Positions 8,661-36,899 of a stretch of 64,000 nucleotides of DNA are shown one piece after another. Source of the DNA: Mytilus edulis (taxonomy: Eukaryota); NCBI RefSeq assembly GCF_963676685.1, contig NC_092346.1, positions 47,554,001-47,618,000 of the forward strand, written 5' to 3'. A program made the translations under genes and the position numbers. Positions within the stretch are counted from its first letter, which is position 1; each line of letters opens with the position of its first letter. Below the pieces are notes generated by a model. It saw nothing but the letters and a program-made list of their open reading frames with translations, made no database searches and was not told the DNA's origin.

Positions 8661-9770
8661 TTTACCGACGAGGATATCATTGCCATGCTGAACTTTTTAA
8701 TTGACAACATATTTGTTGAATTTGGAGGTTTGTTCTTTTAACAGACTATTGGAACCCCAATGGGTACCAATTGCGCTCCTCTACTTGCAAATTTGTTTCT
8801 TATATTTCTATGAAGCAGAATTTATCCAAGGGCTTGTACACAAAGGAGAAAAGAAATTAGCCCAGTCTTTTAATTTCACCTTTTGGTATATTGATGATGT
8901 ACTGTCTTTTAATGATAATAGATTCAGTGATCACTTACGTTTAATATATCCAAGTGAACTTGAAATTAAAGATACTACCGACACAGATAAATCTGCTTCA
9001 TATTTAGACCTTTTTCTCGAAATGACTACTGATGGTAGGTTGAATACCAAAATTTATGACAAACGCGATGATTTTAATTTCCCTATAGTCAACTTTCCAT
9101 TTCTATGTAGCAACATCCTAGCGGCACCAGCATATTGAGTATATGTGTCTCAATTGATACGTTACTCTAGAGCTAGCTAAAAGTACGTTGATTTTGTTGA
9201 ACAAGGAACACTACTTTCTCAAAAGTTGCTAAGACAGGGCTATGAATCAATCAAATTAAGGTCATCACTCGAGAAATTTTACGGTCGCCATCACGAGCTC
9301 ATTGGCCTTTATGACAAAAGTGTGTCAGAAATCATATCTGATATTCTTCCTCAGTCAAAATAACCTTCCATCATTACCGAACTGAACAGAAATAACACGA
9401 CGGGTGCCGTATACTGTGCAGGAAATGCTTACTATTCCGGAGCACATGATTTCACGCCCGAGTTTTAGTGGAGTTCGTGTTGATTCTTAATTATTATTTA
9501 TAGCTGATGATGTAAATGTCCTTAATGTGTGAGTCTTTGTTTACTCCTTGGTTTTGATTGTTATTGTCTTACATAGAGATGATTTGCCCATTGGTTTCCT
9601 GAAATTTTTTGTATACTTATCAGTGTTGTTTATTCTTTGGTTTTCTATGTTGTGTCATGTGTACTATTGTTTTTCTGTTTGTTTTTTTCATTTTTGGCCA
9701 TGGCGTTGTCGGTTTGTTTTGGATTTGTGTGATTGACTGTCCCTTTGGTGTCTTTCGTCCCTCTTTTATC
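8661..9770 (+). mobile_element. 5'-truncated Penelope-like retroelement RT fragment plus 3' tail (pseudogenised)
   Basis: LIDNIFVEFGG..PMGTNCAPLLA..YIDDVLS..KIYDKRDDFNFPIVNFPFL. It has a frameshift and stops (9136, 9178). The tail is shared with 44960-45435 and 51689-52061. Confidence 0.85.
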
Positions 9771-12697: not shown

Positions 12698-12889
12698 TTC
12701 TTCTTTTGTATACCTTCTCTAAATCATATAACTGCGTTTACTTTCTCTTTCAAAGAAGAACTGACTGAACCATGTATTCCCAATACGACTCATTATCTTG
12801 GTAATAATATGTACCCAGACTTAAATTTGAACTAGATTAAATAAATAAAAGATTGTGAGATGGTTGAATATTCCATTTTTAAAGTTATT

Positions 12890-13110
12890 TTAATGTGTAA
12901 TCAGGGATTTTCCCGACCGATCTGCAAAATGTTTCTAAAGTATGTCGATAAAATGGCCATGTGATTTCAAATGGTTTAATGTGTAAGTACAAAGAAAGCT
13001 GTGACGTTTATTACATGTGAGATTGATATACTCTATATGACAACGACCTTTTGTGGACTATAAATATTCTTAACACACTTAAGGGATAAGGAAGTGCACA
13101 TTCAAATGTT
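12890..13110 (+). promoter_or_regulatory. Putative promoter of paralog B: kB-like site, CRE-like motif, TATA
   Basis: GGGATTTTCC 12904-12913, TGACGTTTA 13002, TATAAAT 13059, AAGGAAGT 13088. The block aligns with 34211-34431 upstream of paralog C. Confidence 0.6.
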
Positions 13111-15266
13111 AAATCTTCACGTGCAGAATGTTTATGACAAAATTGCTCACACGAAGGTAAAATCCTAAAATTAATCGATTTGCTTCGATCTTTTCATCGT
13201 AGTTTGATTCCCTTTTAAAGAAATCGATCATTTTTCCCATATACATCAGAAAATCTAGATCAAAGCTCATCAGTAATTATAAACATACGAGCAACATTAT
13301 CTTTCTTGTCCTGTGCTCAGCCAGAAGCGAGGTCAAATTTTTTATATTTACTAGCATCGATTATTTTAATTCTTAATACCTAACTAAGCATATATTGCAA
13401 TCTACGTATTTTAAAAGTATGGTCCTGCACATTATTGATACTCATATGTTTGCGTATATAAACTGAATCCGTTTATAATTATATTATATAATTATATATT
13501 ATAATTATAATTACAAAAAATACCGAAGTAAACTCTATAGAAAATTCAAAACAGAGAGTCACTAATTCAAATAACTTTTCAGTCGTTTGGAAATAATGAC
13601 CTATTAATTCTATGTGTTGATCTACGACTTTGAACTAGGGCTTTCATCAATGCAAATACAATGTGATCGCTAATTGATCATTTCGATTAATTAGTCGGTG
13701 GTTAAAATGCCTCTTTCAGCATTATTGGTTAAATTGATAGTCAATTTAAATTTTACACGGGAAAATAGAGTGCCTGAAGAGAACCAACGACCTTCGGTAG
13801 GAAAACTCACAATTATAGTCAATGAAGATTATAGTGGGGCTTACCTAGACGCTGAGTTAAAAGACTTGGAACATTTGGCCACCAATACCCTTAGTTATTT
13901 TCAGAACCCTCCATAATCCCTTTTTTATATATGGCAAGTTCTTCACAACTGAAAGGTCCTTGTGAGGTGATGATTTGATACCCTGCCTCATTCGGATATG
14001 CGTGTCTCAAACCTAACGTTCAGTGGCTGTCGTTTGCAGTTGCCTGTCATGACTTGATTGATTTACTTAAATACTACTAGTTTAGTCTCAGTTTTAGTTT
14101 GTAACCTGGATTTGTTTTCCCGAAATACATTTATGACTTTTGAACAGTAGTATACTACTGTTGCCTTTTTTCAAGAGTCATAACACGTTTAAAATAGTGA
14201 ATAAAGTTTAAACCTGGTTCCAATTCGTGCAACTATGCAATATCTCATTACTTAATATGATAGTTCCGAGATCGTGTTTGTTTCAGTTTGGAAGTTGAAG
14301 AGTCCTATTAATATATATTGATGTATGCACCTGTCCAGTATTTAACATAGTTCAATTTAGCATCGCAATATAACGGACGCCATAATGAGTTGGTTGACCG
14401 TCATGGAATATCTGTTTCATAGATGACAGTAGATATCCAAATATCGTTACTACTATAACGATCCCTTTTCCCGAATGTTTCCTGAAATGAAAAATAACTT
14501 TTATCAACAGCAAGCCCCGCATGAAATTATTTTTTTCCACACGTACGAGAAAATATGAAGATATAATATGAACACTTAATCTAAGCATCTTATTCTATAG
14601 ATGATAATGTCAAACATACATGGGGATCTTTCCATGTCTTGATTTGGACAATTCGCTTGAAACATATTACCTGGTTTGTAACATCTCTATTCTAGTATGG
14701 ATAGACTTTCAACTATGCTCGTATCAATTTGTTTTAATTTCATTTTTAAATAGGAATGCGATATGATTGCGTATGAGACAACTATTCACCAGGATTAAAA
14801 TAAAGTTGTGCTCTGCACTAATAAGAAAAAACATTGGTTTCTCACTAAACAAAATTACAATTGTGCTTAACTCAAAGTTTTTTATTAAACAATTTCAAGT
14901 TTAACTATAATACGTTCCTTTTCTTTTTCACATAACATACGATAAAAAATCAATACGTCAAAGTTGATAATTGATTTTTATCTGGATTTGAAATGATCAA
15001 ATAGTATATATAAGCATGATTTGCACTATGATGATTTACAGCCGTTCAAAGAAAAAATCTACCTTAGCAAATATTTAGTCAGACCTCTTAACACAGTCAT
15101 AGTACTCATTCTTCTTTATTTCAATCTTAATTTTGTAGTATCTACTTATTACATAATATCACTGGTTCTTGTTCCTTCTATCATACAACCGACTTCAGTG
15201 TCATGTGAATAAACTAAAATGCATACTGCATAAATACCACAATAGGTTATTAGATATAGACTTCAA

Positions 15267-15659
15267 ATGGAGCTCCCGAAAGAGAAGATAAGTTTTGAAA
15301 AACGTAATGTTGGTGCATTCGGAAACAGTTCATACAATCAAGAGTATCATTCTCCTCCAGAATGTTGTGGGAAACAGTCAGATTTAAATGGATACTTACA
15401 ACCGATTAACGGAAACGATAATAGAATATCATCTAACCATGATTACTTGATAGTTCAGGGATCCGTAAAAAGTAATGTGCCACCTGATAAAGAGCCAGAT
15501 GAACCTCACAGCTGGCTACACCCCATGAAAAAAGAGAAAAGGGGAGATCACTGTGGAAACGAAAAGGAGTTTAGTGATCTTGATAAATGTCCATATTCAG
15601 TTATAGCAGATTCCAATATAAAGCAGCAAGACGTCAAAGCTTTTCCTCTAATAAAATAT
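15267..15659 (+). CDS. Paralog B coding exon 1: cytoplasmic Tyr-motif tail
   Basis: Homology to 36558-36899 stops at the shared Y|GTAAGT donor. The rest of track ORF 15267..15971 is intron. Confidence 0.85.
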
Positions 15660-18600
15660 GTAAGTGATATAGTAACCCATAGAATGGCGATAGGTTTGTT
15701 TTTACTAAATTATAAAAGGATTTTAAAAAAAGTCATATATCGAAAATTCTTTATGTCTTGGTTTTTTAAATTCCTATCATACTTCATATTAGACCTTTTC
15801 AACATCTCTCGACACCGACTAATGACACCTACAGTGTACAGGTTATATGGATGGGTCGTCTCAAAGACAAAAACCTTCATGATTACAAAATGTATCAATA
15901 CGTTACATATTGGATTGGCGATTATATACTGTCTTGACTATATAGCTTCAGAATATATATCAACCAAATAGATAAATAAATATATGTATCTGTCATATAT
16001 TTGTCTTATTTTGTATGTATTTACACGACATTTCATGTTAAATTGATTAAAATAAATAAAGCAACCATTCTGCATCCTGGTACGCTTCTCTTAAATTTTA
16101 TGATTATGTGAGTCTTTCACCAAATATTTGCCGCAAGTAAATAACGATTAATTTATTGGTGTAAAAGCTTTGATGAAATTTTTCAAAATTTATAAAAAAA
16201 AAAAAAGTAAATACTGGACTGTCCGTATATCCGTATCACACTTGTGAACACGACCAAATTGGTATTTTTCAACCGGTCTTCACCTTAGTTGGTGTACATA
16301 TTCAATTTCTGGATGGATAATCACATATAGATTTTGAAAGTCTAAGGAAAATACCACATCTATTTCGGTTTTTTTTTATCAACGGCGGACTTCTCCGCTT
16401 CAAGATATTTTATTAGAGTTGATGTTTTCATGATGAATTTTGAAGAAAAAAAATATAATTGACTTCTCGTTTTAATGTTACAACATCTAAACAGTACATA
16501 TTTTTTTTTACATACATGTGTAAGGAATCTATATTTCAAGTTGTTAGTTAACACTATAGGTTGCATTTCTGTAAATATTGACAATGCAATTTCCCATAGG
16601 AACTCCCTAAACGGCTAAAACTGTACCACTTTTACTATGAAGTTTTGAATAAAATCTTATCCTAGAATTGAAAGTTCATATGCACTACAATTTTTTCAAA
16701 GGTCAAAATATAGGACTATGCGGCATAATTTCAACGTTTATATGCCCTTAACTTCTCACAGTTTAAACTAACACTAATGTTCTTAACTACCCCTACCTTG
16801 AATATAAGGTTACCACAGATTTCAATATAAACAAATTACACATGTATATTTACTGGTAACATTCCCAAGTTATGTCTCTATGAGATGGAACACAGAGATC
16901 ATAACTTATGGTACCAGTATGTAAACAAAATTAATTTTCTATGAAACATCTGTATTTACAAAGTGCAACCTATAGAGCTCGTTGACATTGCAAAATCAAT
17001 ATGCTCAGTGCTAAGCAGGGGCTTGGAGACCAACGGCTGGTGTCCCGAAAACAACATACCTTTATCCCTTTGTCATAGTGTTCTTCCCCTGTTCCTAAAA
17101 TGACCTTTTGGTTTCTTACAAAAAGTTGATCAAATTTCGTTGATTTTATTTATACACCGTCATTGCTGTATTTTGTTTTGTTTTCAACGGGTCAGAATTT
17201 GTTTCTCTATATCCAATTTGCGGAACAAAGTTTTGTACCTTTTTCAGTTCTTTTTTTTTTTTCGTACTTTAAATTTTTTTATCTCATCTATGACCATACA
17301 TAAGGGATGTTTTGGATCAAAATAAGGAGAAATGGTCTGCTACATTTCCCGGAGGACTGTATTCTCCTTAGAGACAAAGTTTATCCAAATCATCATCCTT
17401 TAGTTACACCATTTACAACACCTCAAATCAATCGTAAGCCATAACATTTGAAAGAAAGAGCAGAAAATTTAATCGCGTGATTGGCGAATACAGAATTCAA
17501 GTGGAACACCAAATTGGTGAATTGAAAATAAATAAAGTATTTAGTACATTATGGAGACACACAAGGCCAAAACTAACAGACATTGTGGAAACATTGGCCG
17601 TCCTTGTCAACAGACATAAAACATTGTTTAATTAGATATCAACTACAATAAAACATGCTTTGTTCTTTTCATTTTCCAAATACCACCAGGACAGCTAGAA
17701 GCTCAACGTCTAAAAAGATCATTTTCTTTATTATTAATTAAAAAAAATCCATGTTATTTGGACTCTGTAGGAAAGTTCTATCATGGTCAATGAAAGCACT
17801 AAAATCAATACTGATTTCAATTTTTTTATTTTTTGAGACGACCCCTCTCATTTTACCTGTTGTAGTCGTTCTCAACTGTAGGTGTCAGGAGATGCCTATT
17901 ATAACAATTCATATTTATACACTTGAATAGTTATGTTTTACTATGAAACAAGTATATATATATATATATATAGATTACTAAAAAATCCAACATTTCCGGT
18001 ATGAATAGTTTTAATTCACTAGTACTTTCATGTTTAAATAACAATCTTCAGGTGAAACTATACATGATTAACGTAACTATGTAACGGTAGGTATGTAACG
18101 TCATAGTTGTCGTTGAGTATATAAAGGGAGATAAATCGTATTACACTTAGTCTATATATAGAAGTATGGAGCGTCATTATTACACAATAGAAAATGCATA
18201 GTTTGCACATTATTACACAATAGAAAATGCATAGTTTGCACATTATTACACAATAGAAAATGCATAGTTTGCACATTATTACACAATAGAAAATGCATAG
18301 TTTGCATTATTACACAATAGAAAGTGCATAGTTTGCAATTATATATATAATATATATATTCCGAAAAAGGTTTCTTTTTAGTAATGTATGCTTGTGATTT
18401 GATGCAGCTAGAAATGAAATCCTCAAACTATAAAATACTTCTTTTTGCAGTATATAGAGCATCAAATAAAGTTTTTCTATTCATTGTCGTAATGTATGCT
18501 CTTCGTGTTTTGGTATGTTATACGCTGTATTTGAAATTTATAGACATACTGTTTACTTATAGGTAGAAGGCCCACTTAACAGTCAAGAGATTGAAACACA

Positions 18601-21600
18601 AAAGGCATTGAAGAGTTCATCTTGTTCACGTTGCAAAATTGTTGCAATTGTTATGATTATAGTCATACTCATGACTGCCGTTGGCCTTGGAGTGTATTTC
18701 CCAATTCTGAGAAATAACAGTAAAGGTCTGTTTATTTTAAGTTGTACATGTATGTTCGTATTCCGAAATAAGAACTTTACTGCTAAGATTGTTTCTAATT
18801 AACACATTTATTGTTTTATTTTTAAAGTACTGATTCGATGTACCTTATTTTTAATTCAGTTCAATTTAAAACGACAATTTTTTTTTTCTTTTTGTGGGGT
18901 TCGTGTTGCTCCATTTTCAGTTTAATAGTCTAGATAAACATTCATGTTTGTTATTTTTTCTTTGACCGTTTAAAAGAGACCTCATAAGAAGATAATTTTC
19001 TAAAAACAAAAAATGATAAATCCTTTTAATACACAAGGCCAAATGATTCATTTTAGATTGATACTAATTTTTATCGATGTAGAATTCTTTAAAAAAAAAA
19101 AAAAAAAAATACCCAACTCCAACGCTGTTTTCTTACCAGCATAAGTTTGCTTTATTACTCATCATCAGCCCAATTACAGATCAGCAATATCCGAAAAGTA
19201 ACACAAATGGATGGTTTCCTTATTTTCCATCTTCCCCTTGTTTTCCTTCTACACTTCCCTCATTTACTTTCAGACGAAAATCTGTCAACGAAATTTTTCA
19301 ACCATATGCATAATTTTTATTCGAACTTTCCCTAGTTCCAACCCCCTCTTTATCAGTTACCGCTCAGTGGCTCCCGATTCCCGCCTACTCAAACCCAATT
19401 TTCCGTATCCAAGCCTATCCCTATTAAATATCAAACACGTAAAATCTTCAAGAAGGACACTAGTCGTGAAATCTAAACTAGATATATATTTAATGGAGAT
19501 TCGTTAGTTGAATTGAAATCAATATTTTTCAAAGGCTGGTCTTCATTGTAATACAACAACTAAATGTTACGAAAATGAATGGGTAGTTCATATGTTTTAT
19601 ATTTCAGAGAAAAACACTTCTTCGTCATTGCCATCAATATCAAACAAAACCATGAATACGTCAACGACTGATCAATATGTTACTTTTGGAACAACAATAC
19701 TCAGTACGGATGCATCAACATATACCACTACAAATTCGGCTGATTTGCTCACAACACCAACACATGATCAGGATATATCATCAGGTACAAGTAAAAATGT
19801 TAACCTACAATATCGATTCATCTTTTCATCTCTTTATTATATGATTTGATTTAAACTTTGTTTGATGACCTTCTTTAGATTTGTGTGTAAAAGTTCAATT
19901 ATCCACAGTTCAACCACGTATAGATTACACTACTGTAAATATATACAATGCAATTTCAAATAGAAGCTCCCTTAACGGCTGAAACGGTTCCACTTTAATT
20001 ATGAAATTTCGTAAAATATTATATCCTAGAATGGAATGATTTGCACTACTATTTTATTCAAAGGTCAAAACATATGGCTGTGCGGTATATTTTCAAAATG
20101 TATATGACCCTAACTTTTAAGAGTTTAAACTGATACTAAAACTCGGCAATACCCCTCCCTTCACTTTGGGTCTTATTCAGAATTCAATTTTCCCCGCCTC
20201 CATGTGTATTCATACTGGTAACATTTCCAAGATATGTCTCTATGTGATGAAACATAGAGATCATATCTGGGAAGTCTTGCATGATTAAAACATTTATATC
20301 TATGAATAGTATATACCACCCAAAAACAGGCGTGGTTTGTGAATCAGCTGTAAGTGCAATATATATATATATATATTTATTCACGGTCGGTTATTGCATG
20401 TAAACCAGTTTTCGTTTGATGAGGTATATCATGTATAACACTAAACGAAGTGTTATATTAATAAATGTTACAAAAATTAATGTGCTTTAAATTGGTTAAT
20501 GTGTCTTGAAATGTAAAACATTTCCATTAGCTATATATGAGGTAATGACGACAATAAAAGGTCATTATGGGCTATTTTTCCTCTGTAGCAAATGATATAT
20601 GGTATATCTTCAAAGACTCGTTGATCATCATATTGTAATTAAACACTTGAGGTGGTAATACTCGTTGTGAAACCTATAAATGTTTTTCATATATAAAGGC
20701 TGTATTTTTTTAGGTATAAACAGCAGTACAAACCATCAATACCGATATTATAATAACATGCAAAAGCCAAGATAAGTTCCTGTCTCTGGTTTGGTACATT
20801 TTTTTCATCATTGCTGTGTGTCAAATGATAGTTCAAATTATAGAATACATTAAAATCATTCTAATTGAAATTAAAATGGATATGGGGAATGTGTCAAAGA
20901 GTCAACAACAAAAGAGCAGACCAAAGAGCAGAAAACAGCCGAAGGCTACCAATAGGTCTATAACAAAGTGAGAAAAATCCCGCACCCGGTGTTGGAAAAT
21001 CTTTGCATGGAATTTACAGGTGTTTGTCTAAACAAAAACAAAGAAAAAAAAACTCTCGTCTGGTGTTTGGGAACTCAAAGCTGAATTTGAACCCATACAA
21101 ACTGCAATGAAGATACATACACTGCATAAAACTATATGAACACACTATTAGGTTACATGTATCATCTTTATATCCTATATCTGCCATTTCAATATAAATA
21201 AAGGCAATAGTAGTATACCGCTGTTCGAAATTCATAAATCGATAGAGAAAAACAAATCCGAGTTACAAACTAAAACTGAGGAAAACGCATCAAATAAAAG
21301 AAAAGAACACAACAGAAACACAACATTAAAATGTAACACACACAGAAACGAACTATAATATAACAATGGCCATTTCCCTGACTTGGTACAAGTCATTTTA
21401 AGATAAAAAAAAAATGGTGGGTTGAACCTGGTTTTGTGTCATGCTAAACCCCCCGCTTTAATGGCAATGTTAATTATAACATTAAAATGACAACATTACA
21501 TGACAGGACGACAATACAAATAAATGGGAGAACATATAGGACAGAGAAACAAACGATTAATAGCCAACAAAAGGTACTTTGTTAAAAAGTTGATACGCCA

Positions 21601-24600
21601 GACGTGCGCCACGTCCACACAAGACTGACCAGAGACGCCCAGATGAACAAAGTTTGAAAGCCAAAACAAGTACAAAGTAAGATATGCTTAGTTTCATATG
21701 GGATGAATTACGGAAAGATCAGTTACAGCGTTATATGTTGTTTTGGAGTACTTATACGAATCTGTCACTCATTCATTCAATCTTGTAAGTTTAAAACAAG
21801 TAAGCATTTTAAATTACAAGTTTGGTCATTTTAATTGCGTGTTTATGTTTCAGTGGAGTGTAAGTGAGCTTTTAATCTTCCGAGGAATAGTATTGTTAGT
21901 CATGCAAATAACGTATCTATTTCTTTTCAGAGAGCAGCTCATCTCAAGCACCAAGTACCACTATACAACCGCACTGTAAGTACATTACTGTATAAAAAGG
22001 ACGGCATATAAAATACGTTAGAGAATATAAGACGATCGTGGCGATTCGACATACATGTAGCTGCATGAAAATTGTGTCTATGCTATCATCTTATCCTTTC
22101 TGATTCCCACTTCACTTTGGATTTCTTTTATATAAGATTTTTATGTCACATATAGATATAAGAAGATGTGGTATGAGTACCAATGAAACAACTCTCCATC
22201 AAAGTCACAATTTGTAAAAAAAAAACATTATAGGTCAAAGCACGGTCTTCAACGCCGAGCCTTGGCTTACAGCGAACAGAAAGCTATAAAGGGCCCCAAA
22301 AATGATTAGTGTAAAACCATTCAAACAGGGAAACCAACTATATAATTATGCAAGACTGGGGTTGATAAGTAATGTGGTCAATTTGAATGACAGTTTAGGA
22401 GGTGGGGCATTGTAATTGAAGGTCCATCTTGTCTCTGATTGTTTGGTGATAATGACATTTGTCAATCATATAAGTATTGTATCAATTACCTAATCAAAAT
22501 GATTTTAAAAAAAGCTTGCACATTAACACACTTTAATGACATACATTCTTGAATGAACTGTTCCAACTAAAGGCAACAATTGTATACCGCTGTTCGAAAT
22601 TCATTAATCGATTGAGAAAAAAAAATCCGGATTACAATTCCAGTCTTTCCAAAAACGAGAAACGAGAAAGACATATCTGTGTTAAAGATTCCCTTTTAGA
22701 TGCTGTCGCTTATAAAGAAGCAACAGTCCAGAAATATAACAGTCGCATATTTGAAATTCGGTTTTGTTTGGCAATATCTTGTCTTTCCTTCAAATTGAGG
22801 TTTTTATTTCAGCCTTTGTATCGCCGTGCTCCTTGCATGAGGATAATCATTACAGCTTTATATTGGTCCAATTGCGTACACTATTTATATAGAATTAAAA
22901 CGAAGGAGACAGTTTTATTTAAAGATGCCTATATTTGTTAAAATTGAATGTTGATATAGTATATGTTGCAATTTGATTAACGTGATTGGTACACCTTATT
23001 CAATTCATTTGGATGAATACATGGATATACAATGTGTATTTTCTGCTTACATTGCATTTTTTATACTTGTCAAATAATGTTTAAAGAAGTGACTAAATAC
23101 TCTGAGGGGACAACTAGAGACTCATATTTCAAGGAGACACTGACAAAGCAATGGCGAAAATATAACAAACATTAAACGTCAAATAACAAAACAGAGCAAC
23201 AAACAATTCCCTATTAACAATATTTCTTTATCCTCTTTGCATAGTCAAAACATGTAGCTTCGTCTTTCTTATCTCAGTTAATTTTCTGTTCTGATCAGGT
23301 CAGAAAAGTGACACTATAAACCTGTCATTTAATTACTTCTGTATAATATCTGTTTATAGTCTGGAAGGACAATGAATTAATGTGCATCACGATGAAGTTC
23401 GAAGTTTAATTCTATTTTTTGTTACTTAATGCCTAAATTGTTTTTAAATTTGCAGACAATGGTAAATAAAATGCATCTTATAATTTCATTTAGGTTCGCC
23501 TACTGGAAATTTGATTTTGCGATTAAATCCTGACCAAATAGCTGATCTAGCAATTTACAGAAATTGGTTGTTGCATACTTGTGAAGCCGACATTGGTTAT
23601 CCAGCAGGCGATATAAGCATTGAAATTATGAAGTCAGGAGACTTAGAATTCAGAAAATTAGATGTAACAATTGAAAGATCAGAGGACAACATTACTTCAT
23701 GCGAAATTCATAGAAAAATAGAGTTTGGAATAGTATTTACATCTGATATGGAGAAAGCTATTATTAGATGCAAAGTAATCAATACATACTTCCCAGACAC
23801 TACGGCCTTCTATTCAAATAATGATACTGTTTCACTTATACCAGGTAAATATGGCTTTTGTATGCAGTTAAATTTTACAAAAAAATAATCCTGGCCAACT
23901 ACATTAAACTATTTTCTGTACGAAAATTTGCAAATGTTTGCAGTTTTATAGAATGGTGTTTTAATCTGATCAAAATATTGACTGTTTACACGATCTGGTG
24001 CGATAATTTCTATGAATTACTATGTATACGGGATGGCAACGAGTACTCGGATACAAGCTCGGAAGACAGAGTACTCAGTCTTCTCATTTGCCTTTTACAA
24101 ATCTTGTGATATTTCTCTTCATATTTCCCTTCACTTAAGTTCCGTTGAAATATCCCCTTCGTAAATCGTAATCAAAATATTATTACAACGTAATTTCATT
24201 ATCCTGAAACTACATTGGTGTTAAGGAAGTGTCATCAATGTCTGTTCCTTCCGATGGCATGTTTTCATGTACAGGACTTGTAGCAAAAATTAGAAAGTCA
24301 AACAGTATATCTTCTGAAGTTGTGGACGAAATCATATCTCTAAACAAGAACAAAATCAAAGTGCCCTGCAGTTAACCCTTCGCAACTGATTAGAGACATT
24401 TGTAACTGTGTTTGTACACGGATCAACACTTTTATATTAATAACTCATCACAAGCCCATACCTTTGTATGTTAATCAAGACTTCTATGCAAACGTTATTT
24501 GTATGAGATAGAATTGAGAAAGGAAATGGGGAATGTGTCAAAGCGACAACAACCCGACCATAGAGCAGACAACAGCCGAAGGCCACCAATGGGTCTTCAA

Positions 24601-27600
24601 TACAGCGAAAAACTCCCGCACCCGTAGGTGTCCTTCACCTTGTCCAAAAAATATGTATACTAGTACAGTGATAATGGACGTCATACTTGTACATTTAAAT
24701 TAATGTGATTAGTAATACTTTGTATTCGAAACTTAATTTTAATTGTTTCATTTACAATTTAAAGAGAAGCGGAGTAAACTGACAACGCCATGGCTAAAAG
24801 GACAAAGACAAACAGACAAACAATAGTACATGAAATTGGGATGTTTCTTGTTAAGTTCATGAACACGGACAGAAACAGAAACTGTAATTATGAGAGGTTA
24901 TTTGTAGAAACGGCGGTCCGTAATTCATTGTTTAATTGTCACAAAAAAGAAGACATAGGGTCAGGTTATGTTTGTAGTCATGCAGTTTTAGTTCTGCAAT
25001 AATATCTTTGTCTTTTGTTAAGACGTCAAGAAATGTCATGATAATATCACGAGGTTTATGAAAGGTAATAACAAAAAAACGCATCCCACCAAAAATCTAA
25101 ACTTTACAATAAACGTTTAAGATTCATCCGAGTACTCGATCACTCGCGAGTATCATGACCGAGTATTCGAGTATTAAATTTCAGATCTTTTTACAAACCT
25201 ATTATATATCTAGGTTTCAATTAAGAGTAGAGAAAATGACGAATATATTCCATTGACGCCTATAACATTGAGTTACGGACATTGAACCAGTTGTCCACAT
25301 TTTCAACGTTTTTGATCTCAATTAAAGTTGTCTCATTTTGGGATTCAAACTACATCTCCTAACTTTAATATCGTAAAACTAGTTTATTTATTGTGTTAAC
25401 TTCTTCAATGTTTTATCTTCATAAGATTGTATATGCATCCAACAGGATGGTTTCATGGTTTTAAGTTTGATTTTATTGCTAAAGCCAAACTCAACATTTG
25501 AATTTGCAGAGTTTCCTATATTTTCAAATACCAATGTCGACGTTAGTATTGATTAATCGGTGTTCCAACACTATTTTTCCATTTTGTGGTGGTCAGTTTT
25601 TATTGGTCGAGGATGCCGGAGTGCCCGGAAAGAACAACAGACGTCGGTAGCACAACTGACATTTCTAGACAATATTCGAGTGCATCTGCCCCGTACGGGA
25701 TTCGAACTCACAAACTCAGTGTTTACGGGCTAGTGACACAGCAGTTCGATTTCTTAGACCAATCGACCATGACCCTTCGACGTTAGTAGCAAATACTAAA
25801 TGTGTTTTAACTCGTTTAAATCGAGATCTAAAAATACAGTGGTCTAGTTTGTAATTATAGCATACGCTCTTCCTTTGTTGTCCACTATTTGGATAATCAA
25901 TTTGATAACACATATTTGTTATATTATATATGTTACTGTGTATTTTTAAGGATAGCTTCGTGGTTTTTTTCTTATTTTTCATTCCAGAGTACTTATTTGT
26001 AACGTCATTTATTCGTTCTAGCAAATGAAAAGTGAAGAGGAAAAATAATTCTAATACGACGTGCTTCTTTCGCTTTGTGAATAAACCCATGCTCTAAAGC
26101 TAATAACATTTGTTTGTACATGCGTATATTGACTACTGCAGAATAATGAATTTTATCAAATTGTCATGCATTTAATATATTTCATTAATTTTAAAACACT
26201 TCTAAACTCTTAAATGATGCACATGTTGTTACTTATTCATTTGTTATGACTGTATTGTGACCTAGATACGACAACCGTTCATGTTGGCTGTTCAAACTCC
26301 TCCCTCTGAAAAATCATATTGCCAGTCGTTTGCTAGTTTAAAACGAGAAAGGGAGGTTCATGGAAGAACCTATACAAACGGGCTACACCTATACACATCG
26401 GACATAGAAATTACCTTAATTGTCCTAATCAGAATCGAAATAATTGATGCAAGGTACTACTTTATTGTAGTTTTAACTATCGCTCGGGCAAAAATAATCA
26501 CGAATATAATGCCTACCCATGTTAAAACTACAATAACGTATAGCTTGCATCAATTATTTCTTAAATCAAATCTTAAACCAATCTAATTTTGAAAATACTC
26601 ATAATTGCCACTGCTTGTTCACGTAATTAAACAACTCATGATAAAACACTCAATCACAAATTAATAAGCATGGTAGGAAATCGTAGCGAAGGCATGATAT
26701 ATTCAAATTTAGGCACATCGTAAACCAGGCGCAAAATGTAGCGTCTGATTCTGTACAGAACCGCTCAAATTGAACTATTTGAATCGCCACTAATTTGAGA
26801 ATACGTTGTACTATTGTCATCAGTGTTACAATGGTAGCTGTTAAAATATTTAGAAAATTATTTTGAAAGAATATTCTATTTGCGAACATAATGATTAATT
26901 GATACTAGTGATCTAATTAAAAACATGAATCTTAAACTATTTGAATTGTCTTCCTTGGAGCACACCAAATTAAGTCGTTCCGTAAAATTGTTTCATTGGA
27001 TTGTTCAATATTTTCCAGCTGATCATATTGTTTAATAATTATTTATTAGTTATGTATATTAAAGATGATACATATCTTTCAGGGGATGCATGTAAAGACA
27101 ACACTGTCTACAAAAGCATTCGTGTACATCCAACAAACTGTCATTATTATATAGAATGCCAACTAAAAGAACCATATGGGCATGCCTGTCATCAAAATCT
27201 TTGTTTTGGAATATATTCTGTTGATACCTGCAACTATTGTAATCTAGTAACATGTCCAAAAACAAGTAAGAAAGACTCTGTTTTATATACAAAACAAAAC
27301 CTTCAAAAAGTTGTGGATGTACAGAAAAACAACGCATTATTTTAATACATACCTTTATTTATAGAAGTATGTAGAATTATTATACTGACTTTTTTCACTG
27401 CAAACAAAATATTTTCGAGAAAAAAAAGTGCATCACTAACGAGTTTTATTTTCAATGAGGAACGCAGAATGTCAAGTTAGCATGTAGAAAGTATCGACCC
27501 ATAAGGTTAACAAGAACTATCTTTAAAAAAGATATCCGACGTATTTAAATTTGAGTATATGTTTAAAACTATAATTTCGATAACCTCCAGAAGCACAATG

Positions 27601-30600
27601 ATTTAATAATGCAGGACTTCTTTAATTAAATCTCCATCTGAATGTAACTACAAGAAATTCTTTACTAAGTCTCGTTCACTACCTTCATCTTGTGAACAAC
27701 AATGCTCTAACTATCTAAAAATCAATGAATTACCAAAAAAAGAACGTTACAAATTGTTTTGTGAATATTCCGATTACATTTAAATAAGTGATTTACCATT
27801 TACATAACATTTTCTCTGTTTGTGTTCAGTATTCTCGGTCCTCATATCTTTCTGTTTACATTCACCAAAACCCCGCGGAAATCGCACATGCGTAGGTGCG
27901 TTCTAAAAGTCATGAACGTTCGTACAACAAAGTTTACATTAAAAATTATATAATTGTCGCGAATAAACAGCTGTCATGGATGCAGAGAGCTATTGGAGAA
28001 ACAATTATTTTAATAAAATATAAATCTTTGTAAGATCTAGTTCCAATATTTATAGCTTTTCACTTGCTTTCCATCACGATATAATTAACGAGACGTTTTT
28101 TCAAACACAATCAAATCACCCACCATAACAGCATTTAGTCCAATCACAGAAAGGATTTTCGAGCATGCGTATTCTGTTGCCATAGTTAAGCGTCCTTTAG
28201 TTCAAAGGGCACAAACCGAAACTATACTAACTACGTCGGAAAAAAAATTAAAATTAGACATCAACATTATGCTTACTTATAATGTATGATAGACAAAAAA
28301 GGATATGATGAATTCATTCATGGTTCACAATAAGTACATGCACAGAATAAAATACAAAACAAGAAAAGGGCACTTTTTATGCTGTTCTTTGTCTCGAAAA
28401 CACTCTGATATCAATGTAGGTTGAAGATTTGAGTGGAAATCGTTGCAACATGACGATCGCGCCATAATTGTTATTCACAGAATTAATACATTGAATAATA
28501 TGAACAAATAAATATGGAAAAAAATCAAACATTTATATATACGCCATACCTTAAAAAAACACGCACGTGAGAGCATGCATCTCACACACGGGGCGACTGT
28601 ATATTTTCACGCTTAGTGCAATGTACGTACATGTATTCATCAATGATAAATTTTCTTTTTTCGTTTTAATCTATCATAAAAGAAAACATTATTGTGCATA
28701 CCTTTATATAATTTCCCTTTTTCTTTTAAGATGCATCCTGTTCTACACTGACAACAAATCAGAAGGTAATATTTAAACAATAGTATGCACTTTATTTGTT
28801 AGACACAAAAAACATGTGTTAAATTACGCAACATTTAAACTGATATCCTGAGTAGATGGTCTCTATCTCACATCTAATTAAAGCATTTAGTCATATTCCT
28901 TTTACTAAGCCGAGTTTTAATAGCAAAATGCATAAAGACCTATTACAAAAAAAAACAATCACTAACGAATTTATTAAACATACTAGTATTGAAAAGATAG
29001 GCAAAAGACACTAGAGAGACATTCAAACTCATCGAAAATAAACTGACAACGCCATGGCGAAAAAAGAAAAGGCCAACAGATAACAAATAGAACACACACA
29101 GAACAAACCATAGTAAGACTAAGCAACACGAACCCAACCAAAACTTGGGTTCATCTCAAGTGCCCTAGAGGGTATCCACATCTTTCTAAAGTATCTGTCA
29201 TATTCACATTTACTAAATCAAAAAGTAAAATCTCAAAAATACTGAACTCCAAGGAAAATTCAAAACAGAAAGTCCCTAATCAAATGACAAAATCAAAGGA
29301 TAAAACACATCAAACCAATCAACATACAGTGTTTGTTCTGCCCGTCAGTACATTTCTTCATAAAATTGCAAAAAATGGTTCATCATTATCATTTGAATGA
29401 TGGAAATGTAAAATTTTCTTGTTAAAAGCAATGATGTTCAGTACCTTTTTAAAAGTTTTGCTCACATTTATATGAAACAATAAAGTTGGAATCTGGTGTA
29501 AATGAATAATCATCGAATATCATAGTTCTGAAGAAGATTATATTTTGATTCATATTTCTCTTATTAAAGAAAACAGTGAAAATGACAGTGCATGCTGATC
29601 AAATTGTTGGTCTTACTTCTCCAAGAACTTCAAACCTCCATACTTGCACTGGTTATATTGGCAATCGAACGGGCGACATCGCAGTTGAAATACAGTTAGC
29701 AGGAAGTGATAATTATCAAACGATCAGTCCAAGTTATATAACCGAAACAGATACAACAGAAAACTGTGAAATTATAAGAGTCCTCAAATTTTGGATCGGA
29801 TTCACTGTGGCTATGTACAATGCAACTATTAGATGTAAAGCAACAAATGGCCTTAAACCTGATGATTCACCAACGTATTCTAACCATGACATGCTTTCTC
29901 TGGTGTCTAGTAAGTAGAAATGTACAGGGAATAAGTTATAAATTGCAACAAATGAAATAGCTAGCTATAAAACAAGGTTTAGTCCACTATTTAAGAAAAC
30001 GCTTGTAACAAGATGTTTTTCGTTCGTTTGATGTGTTTTAGCGTTATATTTTGCTATTTGATCAAGGACTTTTCGTTCTGAATTTTCCTCCGAGTTCAGT
30101 GTTTTTGTGATTTACTCTTTATAAATGCAAGTTAAAAACAAAAAGACAATTTGATTCGTAAAAACAAAGGTCTTATCAAAACCTTTAGATAACACACAGC
30201 AAAAATAGAGCTCTTCCTTGGTTTAGTTTTTCGTAATTTGAATTTCAGTTTAATGAGGTTTCAAAAAAGTTATAATTACAAAAATACCTAACTCCAAGTA
30301 AATTAAAACGGGATGTCTTTATCAGATAGCAACATCATACGCTCAAACACATTAAACAACTGTCATATTCCTGACTTGGTACTTTTATTTTCTTATGTAG
30401 AAAATGGTGGATTAAACTTGCTTTTATAAATTGAAGGTAACTAAACCTTTCACTTTTAAAAGACTGTGCTCCAGACTACAGACATTAACGAACAAGATTG
30501 GTGCTTGAATTACCGTTACATCAAACGAAAATTTAAGCATTCTTAACAATTGAAGATTGTCTTAAAAACGAACATTGTGAGTTCGTTGATCGAGTTTATA

Positions 30601-31042
30601 AACTATTTTGGAACTCAAACAAAATCTGTAGTTTCTGTTTATAGTCGTGATCTTTTGTGTGTTTGTTCGTCTTGTTTTTCATTTTTTTTTACTTGATTTG
30701 TCTAGTTTTCTCTGATAAACTGGTGTAATTGCCCTCTTGTATTTTAACCGTGTTATTACCAAATCTCTCACTAGAAATACTTTGTATTAATATTATACAG
30801 AATATACATTACAATCTATATTTAACTTTCATTATCTTATGTAATGTAAAACTGTAATTGCAGGTGACTTTTGTGACCAAAATTTCAACGGAACTAACAG
30901 ATATATTCACCCAACCAATTGTAGAAGATTTGTAACTTGTGAGGAGAAAGTAACCTACGTGCACGCATGCCCAAGTGATCTTTGTTTTAGTGTTAAAATA
31001 GATAAGTGTGACTGGTGCTTTAATGTTCAGTCATGTACATAA
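15267..31042 (+). CDS. Paralog B: type II transmembrane protein, (Ig-like + CBM14)x2, about 621 aa
   Basis: Exons 15267-15659, 18563-18725 (TM), 19608-19784 (alternative donor 19790; S/T stalk), 21931-21975, 23494-23844 (Ig1), 27083-27265 (CBM1), 28731-28765, 29570-29909 (Ig2), 30864-31042 (CBM2, TAA). All are GT-AG, phases are consistent, and the 1866-nt total is an open frame. Every exon has a homolog in paralog C. AATAAA at 31281. Confidence 0.85.
16587..16960 (+). repeat. Unclassified interspersed repeat (second copy about 19948-20310)
   Basis: Shared CTCCCT.AACGGCT.AAAC...ATCCTAGAAT...TCAAAGGTCAAAA...ACTGGTAACATT.CCAAG.TATGTCTCTATG. Confidence 0.7.
18175..18337. repeat. 33-bp minisatellite, about 5 copies
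   Basis: Unit CATTATTACACAATAGAAAATGCATAGTTTGCA, head-to-tail with no spacers. Confidence 0.95.
18563..18725 (+). CDS. Paralog B exon 2: transmembrane/signal-anchor
   Basis: SSCSRCK-IVAIVMIIVILMTAVGLGVYFPIL-RNNSK. Homologous to 39305-39479. Confidence 0.8.
21197..21678 (-). repeat. Copy of the 1-643 family (decayed hammerhead-like head at about 21594-21640)
   Basis: Reverse complement of most of 1-643. Confidence 0.8.
22153..22337 (-). mobile_element. SINE-like/Penelope-tail fragment
   Basis: Matches 54728-54910 and the reverse complement of 38279-38421. Confidence 0.75.
23494..23844 (+). CDS. Paralog B exon 5: Ig-like domain 1
   Basis: HTCEADIGYPAGDISIEI...DMEKAIIRC. 351 nt, same length as 45954-46304. 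Confidence 0.85.
24028..25201. mobile_element. Probable decayed hAT-like non-autonomous DNA element with nested repeats
   Basis: Starts GGGATGGCAACGAGTACTCGG; reiterated CGAGTACTCG motifs at both ends (24038-24077, 25128-25174). Nested repeat 24510-24640 is also found at 20862-20990. TIR and TSD are not clean. Confidence 0.4.
25550..25775 (-). mobile_element. tRNA-derived SINE (V-domain-like core), degenerate
   Basis: Minus strand: A-box-like TGGTCGATTGGT, B-box GAGTTCGAATCC (25698-25709), core CCGGGCACTCCGGCATCCTCGACCAATAAAAACTGACC. An older copy lies at about 13690-13885. Confidence 0.6.
27083..27265 (+). CDS. Paralog B exon 6: CBM14-like domain 1
   Basis: C...HPTNCHYYIEC...HAC...CF...C..C....C, a peritrophin-A-like pattern. 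Confidence 0.85.
29570..29909 (+). CDS. Paralog B exon 8: Ig-like domain 2
   Basis: Homologous to the A and C exons, 340 nt. Confidence 0.85.
30864..31042 (+). CDS. Paralog B exon 9: CBM14-like domain 2 and stop
   Basis: DFCDQNFNGTNRYIHPTNCRRFVTCEEKVTYVHACPSDLCFSVKIDKCDWCFNVQSCT*. Confidence 0.85.
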
Positions 31043-31455
31043 TGAAACGGTATAATTTTTATTCGTTTCATACAAATTAAAGTTAATTGAATACCATTTG
31101 CAAAAACGTGTACCAGAAAAACGGTATATGTTTAAATATATAATACAGAATTTCGTTAATATAGATATTCAAAACAAGAATGAACAAAATTCTTAGTCGG
31201 TTCTATTTATACATATTAAACGTAAATGATTTAGATACTTGCACATAGTTTGTTTTAACGCTATAAATCATGTTTATTTAAATAAAAATATATAAATTTT
31301 ATTTATAATTATTATTTTTATTTATGAATAACATAAATGATATAAGGCATAATTAGTATCAAAGGTACCAGGATATTTATAATGCCAAATAAGTACAAAG
31401 TTGAAGAGCAATGAAGACCAAAAATTGATTATACTTTAAAACTACTTTAAACTTA

Positions 31456-31623
31456 AGAGATAACTGTATTGTATTTGAAGCTTTAAGGACGTCCATCGGT
31501 AGTTTTACTGTCGCAAATTTAGTTTACCTGGCGACGCGGAGCGGAGACAGGTAAACGGGTATTTGCGACAGTAAAACTACCGATGGACGTCCGCAAAGCT
31601 TCAAATACAATACAGTTATCTCT
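31456..31623. repeat. 168-bp hairpin, probably the end of a non-autonomous element extending to about 32000
   Basis: AGAGATAACTGTATTGTATTTGAAGCTTT...AAAGCTTCAAATACAATACAGTTATCTCT with a GC-rich loop. It is followed by the inverted pair ATTCTAAT (31624)...ATTAGAAT (32000). Confidence 0.8.
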
Positions 31624-32723
31624 ATTCTAATGCAAAACAAGTTCATAATTAAATTTCAATCATAATTTCAGTGTAAAATCTTCATTAAAAAAAATTCCGC
31701 GAAAAAATATTATCTTCTTTGGTCCCTACACTACGCGACGTCATAGGTATGCTTCCGGCGTAAACATAAACAACGGGCGTTTTCTGGCTTCTGTGCCGTT
31801 TCAGAATGTAATAAAATTTGATAAAAAGAAGATTTTTAGGCGCAAGAAGTGAGTTTATTGTTTATTATTGTAGACATAACATGTCAACACATTCCGAAAT
31901 TCAAAATGTCGGCTTCCTTAGTTACAGACAAGGAGATAGAGAATTTTATGCTTGCTGTCATCCAATCAGAACAATTGTTACAAAATAATTGTATTAGAAT
32001 TACATGTTTCCTTTACAGCTATATTTGCTTAAAATGTACCTATAACAATAACAAACGATTGCAAATAATAAGACACGTTTGCACCAAATTTTTCTCATGT
32101 TTCTGTTTATGCTTAATCCTTCAAATGCTAATTTCTTTTAATTTAAATCCAATGGATATTCATCCAGATTCTGTGTCATCCTTGTTCATGTTTACAATAA
32201 TATAAAATAGCAAATTCAGTGTAAAAAGTTCCTTGTTCATAAAACTAACTTGAAAATACCGTTTAAATATTGTAATGTATTACCACTATGTATGGAAATA
32301 TGGTTATCTTTGAAATGCCGTGTCTGTATGTGAACTCCATTATAAAGTAGGACATATGATTATGTTTTCGTGATGTTTGAATACGCTGACACTTGAAATA
32401 CATAGGGACGTTTTATCAGACACCTCTCGTCAGTAATTACCCTGCTTTCAACAAAAATCCGTGCAACAAATCTCTTGGGAAACTGTAGAGAGACAGTTGT
32501 ATGGCTAAATATCTATCAAATATATCCACATGTCTAAGTGGTAATTTAATCTAATTCGACAGAACCTTCCTTATAGCATTTTCGAACCCAATATTACTGG
32601 ACCAGATGCTCATTTACTCTAATGACTTTTCAGTGGTGCGCAAGGCCATTTTTTCAAAGTTCAAAACTAAGTCTCAACATGTCAAATAAACTCATACAAA
32701 TCAGCATTGAAATTATGCATTCG

Positions 32724-32765
32724 TACCAGACCAGCGTTTCGTCTTAAAAAGACTCATCAGTGACA
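32724..32765 (-). ncRNA. Type I minimal hammerhead ribozyme motif (core intact, weak helix I)
   Basis: Minus strand UGUCA-CUGAUGA-GUC-UUUUUAA-GAC-GAAA-C-GCUG-GUC-UGGUA. Confidence 0.6.
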
Positions 32766-34210
32766 ATGGAATCAAATTATATTAAAAAGGCGAAATAAAT
32801 TTCCGTTACCTTCTTGAAATATTCTACTGTACTTTTTTTTAAACTAAAACACAGGCTTTTCGTTGAAAATGGTAATATTTTGGTAATATTTCATATAGAC
32901 GTTGCCCATGAAATATAGAGAATGTGCAAGTATCAACCTCATGGTAAATTGTATGACACAACATGGCTGTAGATGTTTATCTGGTGTTTTATTAGCTCGA
33001 TATTTCTAATCACACTATGTGTCTAAAGTTTCATATTTTGTATTTTTTGTTATGAAATGTATGACATCTTTCTACCAATTCTTAAACTTAATTTGAGTTA
33101 AATACGTTTTTCAAAAGACCTACCTGTCATAATTTCCATATGTTTTATTGCAGTTTCCCCAAATATGAAATACTCTAAGATTAAGGTCAAATGTAAATAA
33201 AATAAGTTACACAGGGAAACATCATTAAGACAATTATGACAGTAGCATTTGTGTTCAAATAAATAGAAAATAAGCATTGATTTTTTGTTCATCATAATGA
33301 AGGAATTTGATTTCAAAAATAAATGATTGGAGAATTGGTTCTCTTTAATTTGTCAAACTATTATTTTCTAATATACAAATTAAATCATTTTAGTCCTACC
33401 GACTTGGGAAATGGCTGTCGATTTTTTATTTAAATTTTATTGAGAGGTTTTTTAACTGTTTAATTTTGTTCTTTGATAAAATAAAATAAACAATCATACA
33501 TCTTTAAAATGTTATTGTTACAATTCAAAATTTTGATATGTGATTCATATTTTAGGTAACGGTTACGAATTATTCGCACAATCAACTAAGTAAACATTAC
33601 GTATAAAACTATGGGATGAGGTAAGATTGCCAATATTACAACTCTTCACTAAAGACCAAAGAACGTAGAAGTTAAAATTCTATGTCACCGTATGGCTTTC
33701 AAAAAAAATAACACATACAGCATTCAAGACAAAAAAAGCCTCGAAAAGACAAACGTTTAATGATTCAAATGAATGACAAATCTAATGGCTTGAATTGTGC
33801 ATAAAACAATCAACAAACGCAAATATGATATATTGCAACAAGCGATACCATTGAATTACAGCCTCCTGACTTATGAACACCACATAACTAAACTTGTGAC
33901 ATTTTCACATCAGCAAAAAACAATAAGACAAATTTACAAAACAGTAAACATAGTACTTATTGGTCATAACATAATAAAGGAAGAATGTCATTGAATGTCA
34001 TAAGTGCAAACATTTAAAAACTTTAGTGTAAGCTCATTGAAAATTAAGGTTTGCATTTATTGGAACAATAAATGAAAAATCGATTAGCATTATCCTTCTA
34101 GTACCGTTTTTTATTTGTATGTATTTAGACATACATTTAATATTAAATGAATTTCTAAACGTTTATGCTTTTGTGCCGGTAAATCCGGTTTATCCCGTTT
34201 TCTACGCAGT

Positions 34211-34431
34211 TTAAGTGGTAAATCGGGACTTTCCCAGGTCAGTTTAGTACGTAGTTTGTACAATTAGTCGAATATCTTTTTTAACATTTCCAATTGTTAA
34301 ATAAGTTGATATTATTAACGATATTGACGTTTAAAACATGATATTGATATAACCTACCATGACAACCTCCTTTTATGGTTTAAAAATATTGTAAATATAC
34401 AAACATTTGAACAAGGAAGTTGACATTTAAA
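34211..34431 (+). promoter_or_regulatory. Putative promoter of paralog C: canonical kB site, CRE-like motif, TATA-like
   Basis: GGGACTTTCC 34225-34234, TGACGTTTA 34325, TTTAAAAAT 34379, AAGGAAGT 34413. Same order and spacing as upstream of B. Confidence 0.6.
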
Positions 34432-36557: not shown

Positions 36558-36899
36558 ATGGAGCTCCAAGACGAAAAGATGAGTTTCGATGACAGAAATT
36601 TTAGCGCATACCTTAACAGATCATACAGTGACGGGTTTTCTCCGCCTCCTGATATTTGTGGAAAACAGAGGCATTCTAATGGATATTTACACCCTTGTAA
36701 TCGTTATGAAAAGGGTATATCTTCCAACCATGATTATCTCAGTGTACAGGGATCTATCAGAGAAGAATCGCAAGTTGATAAAGTATCAAACAAACCTCCC
36801 GTCACTGATGATGATCGAATATACAATGAAATAGCAGATTCAACAAAACTTAGAACGTCTGGGCAGTCAGACGTCAATTGTTTTGACCAAAAAGAATAT
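36558..36899 (+). CDS. Paralog C coding exon 1: cytoplasmic Tyr-motif tail
   Basis: MELQDEK...NGYLHP...HDYLSVQGS...IYNEIADS...EY|GTAAGT. Confidence 0.85.

Follow-up and report, generated by a model that had tools for sequence, protein, structure and literature searches.

Promoters conserved among tandem paralogs, together with alternative upstream first exons, are an ordinary feature of duplicated genes, and few bivalve regulatory elements have been mapped. Here we describe a conserved block found upstream of two tandem paralogs, genes A and B, in a 64,000-nucleotide stretch of the Mytilus edulis genome (assembly GCF_963676685.1, contig NC_092346.1, positions 47,554,001 to 47,618,000 of the forward strand; hereafter the window) lying on a 107-Mb contig of a 1.37-Gb genome. 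Each block carries a kB-type decamer, a putative Rel/NF-kB site. The block is likely to be an upstream TATA promoter with a short first exon, used beside a second start about 115-150 nt before the ATG, a reading to which we give a probability of roughly 0.55. Like the promoters of other tandem paralogs it has been copied with the gene, has eroded copy by copy and is followed by a first intron of variable length; unlike them, it has a first exon that is apparently coding in the A subfamily and holds only upstream open reading frames (uORFs) in the B subfamily. This is ordinary duplicated-gene regulation. A search of the open literature found no description of the block, the gene family or a kB-bearing dispersed repeat nearby, and subscription journals and supplementary tables, which lay outside the search, may list the genes.

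Two described systems are comparable at the level of the motifs. As far as the available text of the Drosophila study goes (PMC13445714), the mussel block resembles the elements where Relish sites occur with Kay/Jra sites in having a putative kB site and a bZIP-type site about 100 bp apart, a few kb or less from a predicted recognition-protein gene, but it has one putative kB site and not a cluster, and carries a predicted TATA box and splice donor in addition. In the accessible part of the work on Pinctada fucata, Rel binds and drives the promoter of the shell matrix gene Nacrein, as seen by electrophoretic mobility shift assay, reporter assay and RNA interference (PMC4497715). Both are bivalve promoters with kB sites, but Rel binding to the Nacrein promoter was shown experimentally and its target is a shell matrix gene.

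At the level of the proteins, the VCBPs, which bind chitin and microbes in gut mucus, are in Ciona and amphioxus, in the portion of the account available, secreted molecules with a leader, two V-type Ig domains and one C-terminal chitin-binding domain (CBD; PMC7947342). The mussel proteins share with them predicted Ig-fold domains joined to a CBM14 chitin-binding domain (PF01607) and membership of a small multigene family, but they have no leader, a tail with Tyr motifs, one helix, a Ser/Thr-rich stalk and alternating (Ig-CBM14)x2-3 units. Secretion and the V-V-CBD order, which define VCBPs, are absent from the mussel proteins and the resemblance is likely convergent.

Homology of the upstream blocks

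The two blocks and their motifs are located as follows, in window coordinates.

12868..13156 (+), block A, the regulatory block upstream of gene A, including its predicted first exon; homologous to copy A2 from about 12868 onward
34200..34524 (+), block B, its counterpart upstream of gene B, likewise including a predicted first exon
12904..12913 (+), kB-type decamer of A, putative Rel site, GGGATTTTCC
34225..34234 (+), kB decamer of B, putative Rel site, GGGACTTTCC
13002..13010 (+), TGACGTTTA in A, presumably CRE/ATF-like, 98 bp after the kB decamer
34325..34333 (+), TGACGTTTA in B, which we take to be CRE/ATF-like, 100 bp after the kB decamer
13022..13044 (+), conserved motifs of A, ATTGATATA at 13022 and ATGACAAC at 13037
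13059..13066 (+), TATA box of A, TATAAATA, 29 bp before the predicted start
34381..34388 (+), degenerate TATA-like word of B, TAAAAATA, 32 bp before the predicted start

The counterparts of ATTGATATA and ATGACAAC in B lie at 34343 and 34359, with TTAAAAATA at 34380, and AAGGAAGT, presumably ETS-like, is found at 13088 in A with its B counterpart at 34413. The factor names attached to these motifs are our assumption and denote a motif match.

The initial annotation had aligned 12890-13110 with 34211-34431, and the alignment is borne out. The best strict local alignment between the 4 kb upstream of each ATG pairs 13002-13108 with 34325-34433 (72% identity, E 5e-9) at a score of 68, compared to 33.7 +/- 3.2 (maximum 41) in 30 dinucleotide shuffles. 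Strict scoring aligns the 3' ~110 bp only and excludes the kB half, which soft scoring adds (12737-13115 with 34044-34441, score 381 versus 168 +/- 19 shuffled). The named motifs and their distances are all exact, both the 98 and 100 bp from the kB decamer and the 2363 and 2333 bp from the kB decamer to the ATGs at 15267 and 36558. The reported lack of similarity around the block holds distally, where the block is the sole stretch alignable between A and B types within 6 kb, but 100-250 bp before the ATG the paralog types align as well; the block and this proximal region are the non-repeat upstream stretches alignable across types. The position about 2.3 kb upstream is coincidental and not a conserved spacing, as the kB-to-ATG distances in the six copies with a kB or near-kB site are 2333, 2363, 3062, 3233, ~3650 and 7120 bp.

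Copy number and constraint

A degenerate pattern of the block core matched six times in the 1.37-Gb genome, all within 180 kb, and a control pattern gave no match. BLAST of block A and of block B each found two further copies, all in the array and on one strand, which excludes a high-copy repeat, and gene D was found by profile search to have a further copy, the seventh, which is diverged and lies 7.1 kb ahead of it (E 2e-5). The orientation is identical in all seven. Paralog C has no block within 25 kb (best score 49, compared to 92-130 between types). The array spans 298 kb in the order C, A2, D, B2, A3, B3, A, B, with more distant relatives interleaved. Similarity of the blocks is plain paralogy, and since the copies share one ancestor they are not independent witnesses. 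A search of JGI metagenome contigs gave no match, which is uninformative for an animal locus.

Conservation in excess of the surroundings is seen among the B types. The core is identical at 102/110 positions between B and B2, against 1035/1364 in the intervening DNA (p 1.5e-5), and at 91/103 between B and B3, against 865/1082 (p 0.037). The -300..-1 region forms a second conservation peak in the B types (p 1e-4 and 0.003). Between A and B, core identity is 72% against 59/101 four-fold sites, a count that omits one mis-framed exon pair with 0/3, and the margin is modest because the window of comparison was chosen as the best match. Constraint on the block in the B lineage is supported by these comparisons.

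Promoter anatomy and the predicted first exon

A TATA box is typically found some 28-33 bp ahead of a pyrimidine-purine start. In A, A2 and A3, TATAAATA stands 29 bp before the pyrimidine-A step that opens AAGGAAGT, and weaker TATA-like words stand at 32 bp in B and B2 (TATACATA in B2) and at 35 bp in D. TATA-like words are expected 0.3 times per 220 bp here. The exons and acceptors predicted from this anatomy are listed below (the caret marks the exon end).

13088..13156 (+), predicted first exon of A, 69 nt, starting at AAGGAAGT; donor AAG^GTAAAA between 13156 and 13157; gene model P0054 uses this exon
34413..34524 (+), predicted first exon of B, 112 nt; donor CCT^GTAAGA between 34524 and 34525; short uORFs only
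15244..15245 (+), acceptor AG chosen by P0054, 21 nt ahead of the gene A ATG and in frame with ATG 13106; it scores weakly, at -1.3 to 1.6
36419..36420 (+), candidate acceptor AG at -137 of B; AG here in six A/B-type genes, absent in paralog C

The donor is AAG^GTAAAA at +69 in A and A2 and CC(T/G)^GTAAGA at +111/112 in all three B types. In five of the six A/B copies it scores 8.2-12.1 and is the best within 300 bp; random 120-bp windows match the A donor score in 7% and the B donor score in 3% of cases. A3 has GTGAAA at the donor position and D has no strong donor. The first exon had been taken as non-coding. In all three A-type copies, however, a conserved AAATG (ATG 13106 in A) opens 17 stop-free codons that end in phase 0 at the donor, which makes the exon a candidate coding exon; substitutions within this frame are mostly non-synonymous, judged by eye. 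The B types have lost the A-type donor by deletion, and uORFs of 1-19 codons are all that their exon contains. An 8-codon ATG frame within the core (13037) was discarded as too short and is lost in B3. AG acceptor candidates just upstream of the ATGs are present as reported, but the two nearest the ATG score -7.5 and 1.6 in A and -8.8 and 1.7 in B, below 15 of 16 verified acceptors of these genes. The AG at -137 in B corresponds to -170 in A. An acceptor of D, 34 nt before its ATG, looked promising by eye, scored -1.6 and 3.1, and was not counted.

One public gene model uses the block. P0054 (CAG2226460.1) was found by profile search and originates from another Mytilus edulis assembly; its accession series is probably that of a Nanopore assembly annotated with Braker and RNA-seq. 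The block exon of A2 and A accounts for residues 1-17, in two frames, and window 15244-15276 for residues 17-27; the remainder is the A-type Tyr exon. In this model the coding sequence opens with the block ATG, and the block donor is spliced to an AG homologous to 15244-15245. In gene A of the window the same join is in frame and stop-free and adds 17 + 7 codons, and A2 and A3 have one equivalent AG each, at -45 and -54. A Nanopore assembly of Mytilus edulis annotated with Braker plus RNA-seq is described in the accessible text of PMC9063065.

RNA coverage upstream of gene B

RNA coverage was examined for gene B only, in four runs over 33700-37000. Run X1 was taken as RNA by guess, and its contig is spliced. 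The other three runs (X5, X12, X21) covered repeats only in this interval and no gene B coding exon.

36445..36902 (+), gap-free RNA contig of X1, 677 nt, depth 34, then spliced to the exon at 39305
36440..36446 (+), TCATATC, presumably initiator-like, candidate proximal start of B; TCATTTC in A2, B2 and B3
15116..15122 (+), TTATTTC, candidate proximal start of A by homology to the initiator-like motif of B

The X1 contig is colinear with the genome to 113 nt before the gene B ATG and passes the AGs at -101, -21, -13 and -7. It ends 3 nt after the A of TCATATC, and the bin at its 5' end has a depth of 9.21, which equals 34.1 x 30/111, with nothing beyond the contig end. Contigs cannot show a transcription start, and initiator-like words occur about 2-14 times per kb. 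Two further X1 contigs of low depth (3-4x, 0-1 mismatch) lie at 34880-35231 and may represent nascent RNA from upstream or else DNA. The proximal region is also present in paralog C, which has no block. B is a copy with a weak TATA word, a caveat on reading the X1 contig as evidence of a proximal start.

Interpretation of the block

An upstream start in the block combined with a proximal start reconciles the RNA contig, paralog C and the promoter anatomy. The blocks had been called true promoters. Low copy number, constraint in the B lineage, TATA spacing, donors and model P0054 agree with that description, but the RNA contig of B, colinear to -113, speaks against the block as the sole promoter. 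If the combined reading is correct, the block would be a single-locus regulatory module copied with each duplication of the Mytilus gene. The upstream start would be turned on after a stimulus by Rel/NF-kB at the kB decamer, with a bZIP factor bound at TGACGT and an ETS factor bound at AGGAAG, and would serve stimulated cells or another tissue. From an initiation point about 30 bp past the TATA box, a 69-nt (A type) or 112-nt (B type) exon would be spliced into the ATG exon. In A the predicted cytoplasmic tail would gain 24 residues, a Tyr motif among them; in B only uORFs would be added. Resting mRNA would be supplied by the proximal TATA-less start, common to the block-less paralog C.

Several observations weigh against the combined reading. 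Depth on 33700-34698, which holds block B and the predicted exon, is zero in four of four runs, with no joint, and the predicted first exon of B (34413-34524) has no RNA read or contig in the four runs, one of which (X1) is informative. The proximal start is placed on one contig end, beside the position where B differs from B2 and B3, and this end lies 24 nt short of the candidate acceptor AG common to six genes. The TATA word is weak in B and absent in B3, and TGACGT is lost in D. The kB site is lost in B3 and in A3 it matches at 9/10 positions, about 820 bp away from the core. The A lineage gives no signal of constraint, with 87-90% identity in the core against 85-88% background (p 0.76 and 0.20). 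The acceptors close to the ATGs all score in the weak-to-moderate range, splice-site matrices were built from only 16-35 paralogous sites, and a phase-0 frame of 10-23 codons precedes 10% of donor-like sites by chance. P0054 is one model among about 30 N-termini inspected, carries two frameshifts relative to the window, and its first intron may be ab initio or hint-based; 8-13 other ATG..GT initial exons can be drawn in each 5-kb upstream region.

Of the alternatives, the block as the only promoter, which comes nearest to the initial annotation, survives best, although we judge it unlikely. All mRNA would then be spliced from the block exon into the ATG exon, and the X1 contig would be 5'-truncated or partly unspliced. 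The promoter anatomy, the donors and P0054 are explained by it. So is the AG at -137 (B) or -170 (A), which occurs in the six block-bearing genes and not in C and lies 24 nt from the contig end, and the low-depth contigs at 34880-35231 could be pre-mRNA from the block; that contigs cannot show a start also leaves it room. On the other hand, about 135 nt, the whole 112-nt exon among them, would be missing from a contig of depth 34, with the bin empty beyond its end, and the contig runs past the AGs at -101, -21, -13 and -7. Paralog C, too, has the proximal region and no block.

A more novel proposal, and a rather doubtful one, is that an NF-kB-switched alternative promoter rewires the signalling end of a mussel-specific, membrane-anchored VCBP-like chitin receptor, so that infection would replace the signalling form by a different product. 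Phase 0 is common to the ends of the block exon and the Tyr-motif exon and to the position, 18563, where the membrane exon starts. In the A types the tail would gain 24 residues, or the 131-codon Tyr exon would be skipped to give a short-tailed form; in the B types a Met opens the hydrophobic stretch and skipping might yield a tail-less form or secreted decoy. No annotated protein joins the block exon directly to the membrane exon, in what is a weak test (one cluster among 18 candidates; about 30 N-termini).

It is improbable that the block acts solely as a distal enhancer, with its kB, bZIP and ETS motifs serving the proximal start and its TATA word, donors and open frame incidental. A spacing that varies from 2.3 to 7.1 kb and the lack of RNA on block B in the four runs would suit an enhancer, as would the 0.3 TATA-like words expected per 220 bp. 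In the available text of PMC13445714, Drosophila immune enhancers are rich in Relish and bZIP motifs and lie mostly <10 kb from the start. Strong donors at two positions in two lineages (7% and 3% by chance) are not expected of an enhancer, however, nor are the fixed TATA spacing in the A types, the single orientation in 7/7 copies and gene model P0054.

That the block is a neutral or vestigial remnant of duplication which merely escaped insertions appears very unlikely. The A copies show no excess conservation, A3, B3 and D have lost motifs, one A-B exon is identical at as many as 22/29 four-fold sites, and local alignment favours the best window. The significant excess in B-B2 and B-B3 argues otherwise, as do the position of the block as the only distal stretch alignable between A and B in 6 kb, and its recognisability in D, whose first coding exon barely is recognisable (E 1e-5).

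A transposon, dispersed repeat or structured RNA gene is scarcely credible: the genome holds 10,866 copies of GGGACTTTCC, about half of them in one repeat, and a repeat copy lies 500-600 bp downstream of most blocks, but block copies occur in the array only, the kB flanks score no higher than shuffles against a repeat profile, and none of four loci has an Rfam match at the gathering score (two sub-threshold matches both lie outside the blocks).

The kB site

Rel/NF-kB sites follow the consensus GGGRNWYYCC, which fits five of the seven block copies (A, A2, B, B2 and D, the last with GGGGGTTTCC), and differences among these five are confined to degenerate consensus positions. TGACGTT is retained in six of the seven, D being the copy that lacks it. 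The kB decamer was noticed in A and B, and a neutral simulation of its retention was conditioned on these two copies. The probability that D keeps the site was 0.052 at the branch lengths of the block and 0.017 at 1.5 times those lengths; for at least three of the other five copies it was 0.32 and 0.10. Retention beyond the neutral expectation is suggestive, modest and not strong. The 64-kb window has three matches to the consensus where 1.41 are expected, and 19 of 100 shuffles reach three; the count is unremarkable, so the weight rests on two decamers at one position of an aligned block.

Genome-wide, GGGACTTTCC occurs 10,866 times compared to 637 for the reversed control, and 5,036 of these occurrences lie inside AAACGGAAAGTCCC, a 14-mer of one dispersed repeat (5,036 exact copies, control 6). 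An origin of the block kB site from this repeat is not supported, the repeat profile finding no match on the kB flanks in 4/6 copies and scoring 0.3 bits in A and -2.5 bits in D, no better than shuffles.

The initial annotation regarded the kB sites as independent support for an immune role. This is not upheld: the copies descend from one ancestor, the decamer is common by way of the repeat, and Rel drives Nacrein in the accessible part of PMC4497715. Because Rel also regulates a shell gene, a kB site alone does not mean immunity. The site is compatible with immune induction without being independent proof of it; an immune role is better argued from the domain architecture, and the block by itself is no proof. 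We put the odds that the block is truly Rel-dependent slightly above even.

Genes A and B and the encoded proteins

15267..31042 (+), gene A, 9 coding exons, 621 aa, P0020 / XP_071162986.1; exons 15267-15659, 18563-18725, 19608-19784, 21931-21975, 23494-23844, 27083-27265, 28731-28765, 29570-29909, 30864-31042
36558..52361 (+), gene B, 9 coding exons, 608 aa, P0022 / XP_071162988.1; exons 36558-36899, 39305-39479, 41187-41354, 41739-41783, 45954-46304, 47890-48072, 49284-49318, 50651-50993, 52177-52361

Both paralogs are complete, as had been reported, and their nine coding exons splice exactly to P0020 and P0022. The proteins have a polar N-terminus of 115-140 residues, one hydrophobic helix at 154-183, a Ser/Thr-rich stalk and two Ig-like + CBM14 units. 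YxxI/V-type Tyr motifs can be read in the N-terminal tail. An N-terminal leader is absent, the single hydrophobic helix coming after the long polar N-terminus, and the arrangement would correspond to a type II membrane topology. Each unit consists of a beta domain of about 117 residues and a cysteine-rich domain, in the order Ig-CBD-Ig-CBD. CBM14 forms the C-terminal domain (PF01607; in P0002 the match is above cutoff, E 5.9e-7). Foldseek matched the beta domain best to IgG/IgM Fc constant domains (E 5.7e-7, for a model of mean pLDDT 47), and Atlas placed it with C1/C2-set clusters at 0.87, a lead only; sequence searches of Pfam and PDB did not detect the Ig domains. From these models the Ig fold looks C-type. 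All 19 protein matches of the first Ig exon are from Mytilus. Shell-repair transcripts include Ig and chitin-binding domains, but not the architecture of the mussel family, in the part of PMC8382897 available, and a shell-matrix role of the family is conceivable.

Other members of the array

The first coding exon of A3 (contig 47510582) is interrupted at codon 26 by an in-frame TAG, and this copy is possibly a pseudogene; an insertion has moved the A3 kB site. A2 (contig 47411243-47414332) has tail, membrane and stalk exons without close Ig exons after them, and the public models of A2 type (P0191-P0193) stop after the stalk; it is possibly a truncated or ectodomain-less paralog. Gene D (contig 47472430 and 47479362-47484422) has a strongly diverged first coding exon and B-like Ig exons; its membrane exon was not found, and public model P0019 likewise lacks one. 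The 3' end of B3, comprising the second Ig exon and the last chitin-binding exon, occupies window 3346-4950, and the B3 block lies 19.7 kb before the window.

Model P0025 (XP_071162981.1) joins the 5' exons of C to 3' exons of B2 about 100 kb away (contig 47385426-47502740), and is either mis-assembled or a product of read-through splicing between paralogs. Four-fold identity in the Ig1 exon ignores the A/B grouping (C-B2 23/28, B-B2 17/26, A-B 22/29), which hints that ectodomains have been exchanged between paralogs by exon shuffling or gene conversion. Distant relatives of P0001/P0003 type are interleaved with and flank the array (contig 47428847-47457365 and 47626489-47643864). They have a membrane helix, a SEA domain, a long Ser/Thr mucin stalk and repeated Ig + chitin-binding units, which suggests a mucosal or gut-surface family.

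Dispersed repeat and other elements of the window

34743..34947 (+), copy of a dispersed high-copy repeat, with the third kB decamer of the window at 34826-34835 on the minus strand, outside the block

The repeat is about 200 bp long, contains a perfect GGGACTTTCC and has 31 profile matches in 298 kb. Each of the six A/B blocks is followed by a remnant, at a distance of about 300-600 bp from the core, or about 1.3 kb in A2, where there is an insertion (contig 47409581, 47488351, 47508294, 47534623 and the equivalent sites beyond blocks A and B). This distribution suggests that the insertion predates the A/B split. B and B3 retain the kB decamer within the remnant. The repeat could seed NF-kB sites genome-wide, or merely confound motif scans.

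Window 59106-59786 holds an acidic open reading frame of 220 codons with no Pfam match and no match elsewhere in 258 kb. Public model P0023 adds exons at 60535 and 61708 (region 60535-61848) to gene B. Possible retroelement fragments, presumed from their resemblance to reverse transcriptase or related reading frames, lie at 8701-9138, 56152-56640 (minus) and 63136-63666; the two scanned had no Pfam match. Long imperfect palindromes, which match themselves as inverted repeats, at 5077-5521, 26437-26560, 31456-31623 and 57860-58000 are probably MITE-like elements.

Implications

The block is probably of less interest than the gene family downstream of it. An unannotated first coding exon may exist in the A-type genes, in which case their gene models would be corrected. 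The seven block copies form a natural mutation series, in which the kB site is lost in one and displaced in one, the CRE and the TATA word are lost in one each, and one paralog is without the block, and this makes Rel control of the family directly testable by paralog-resolved comparison.

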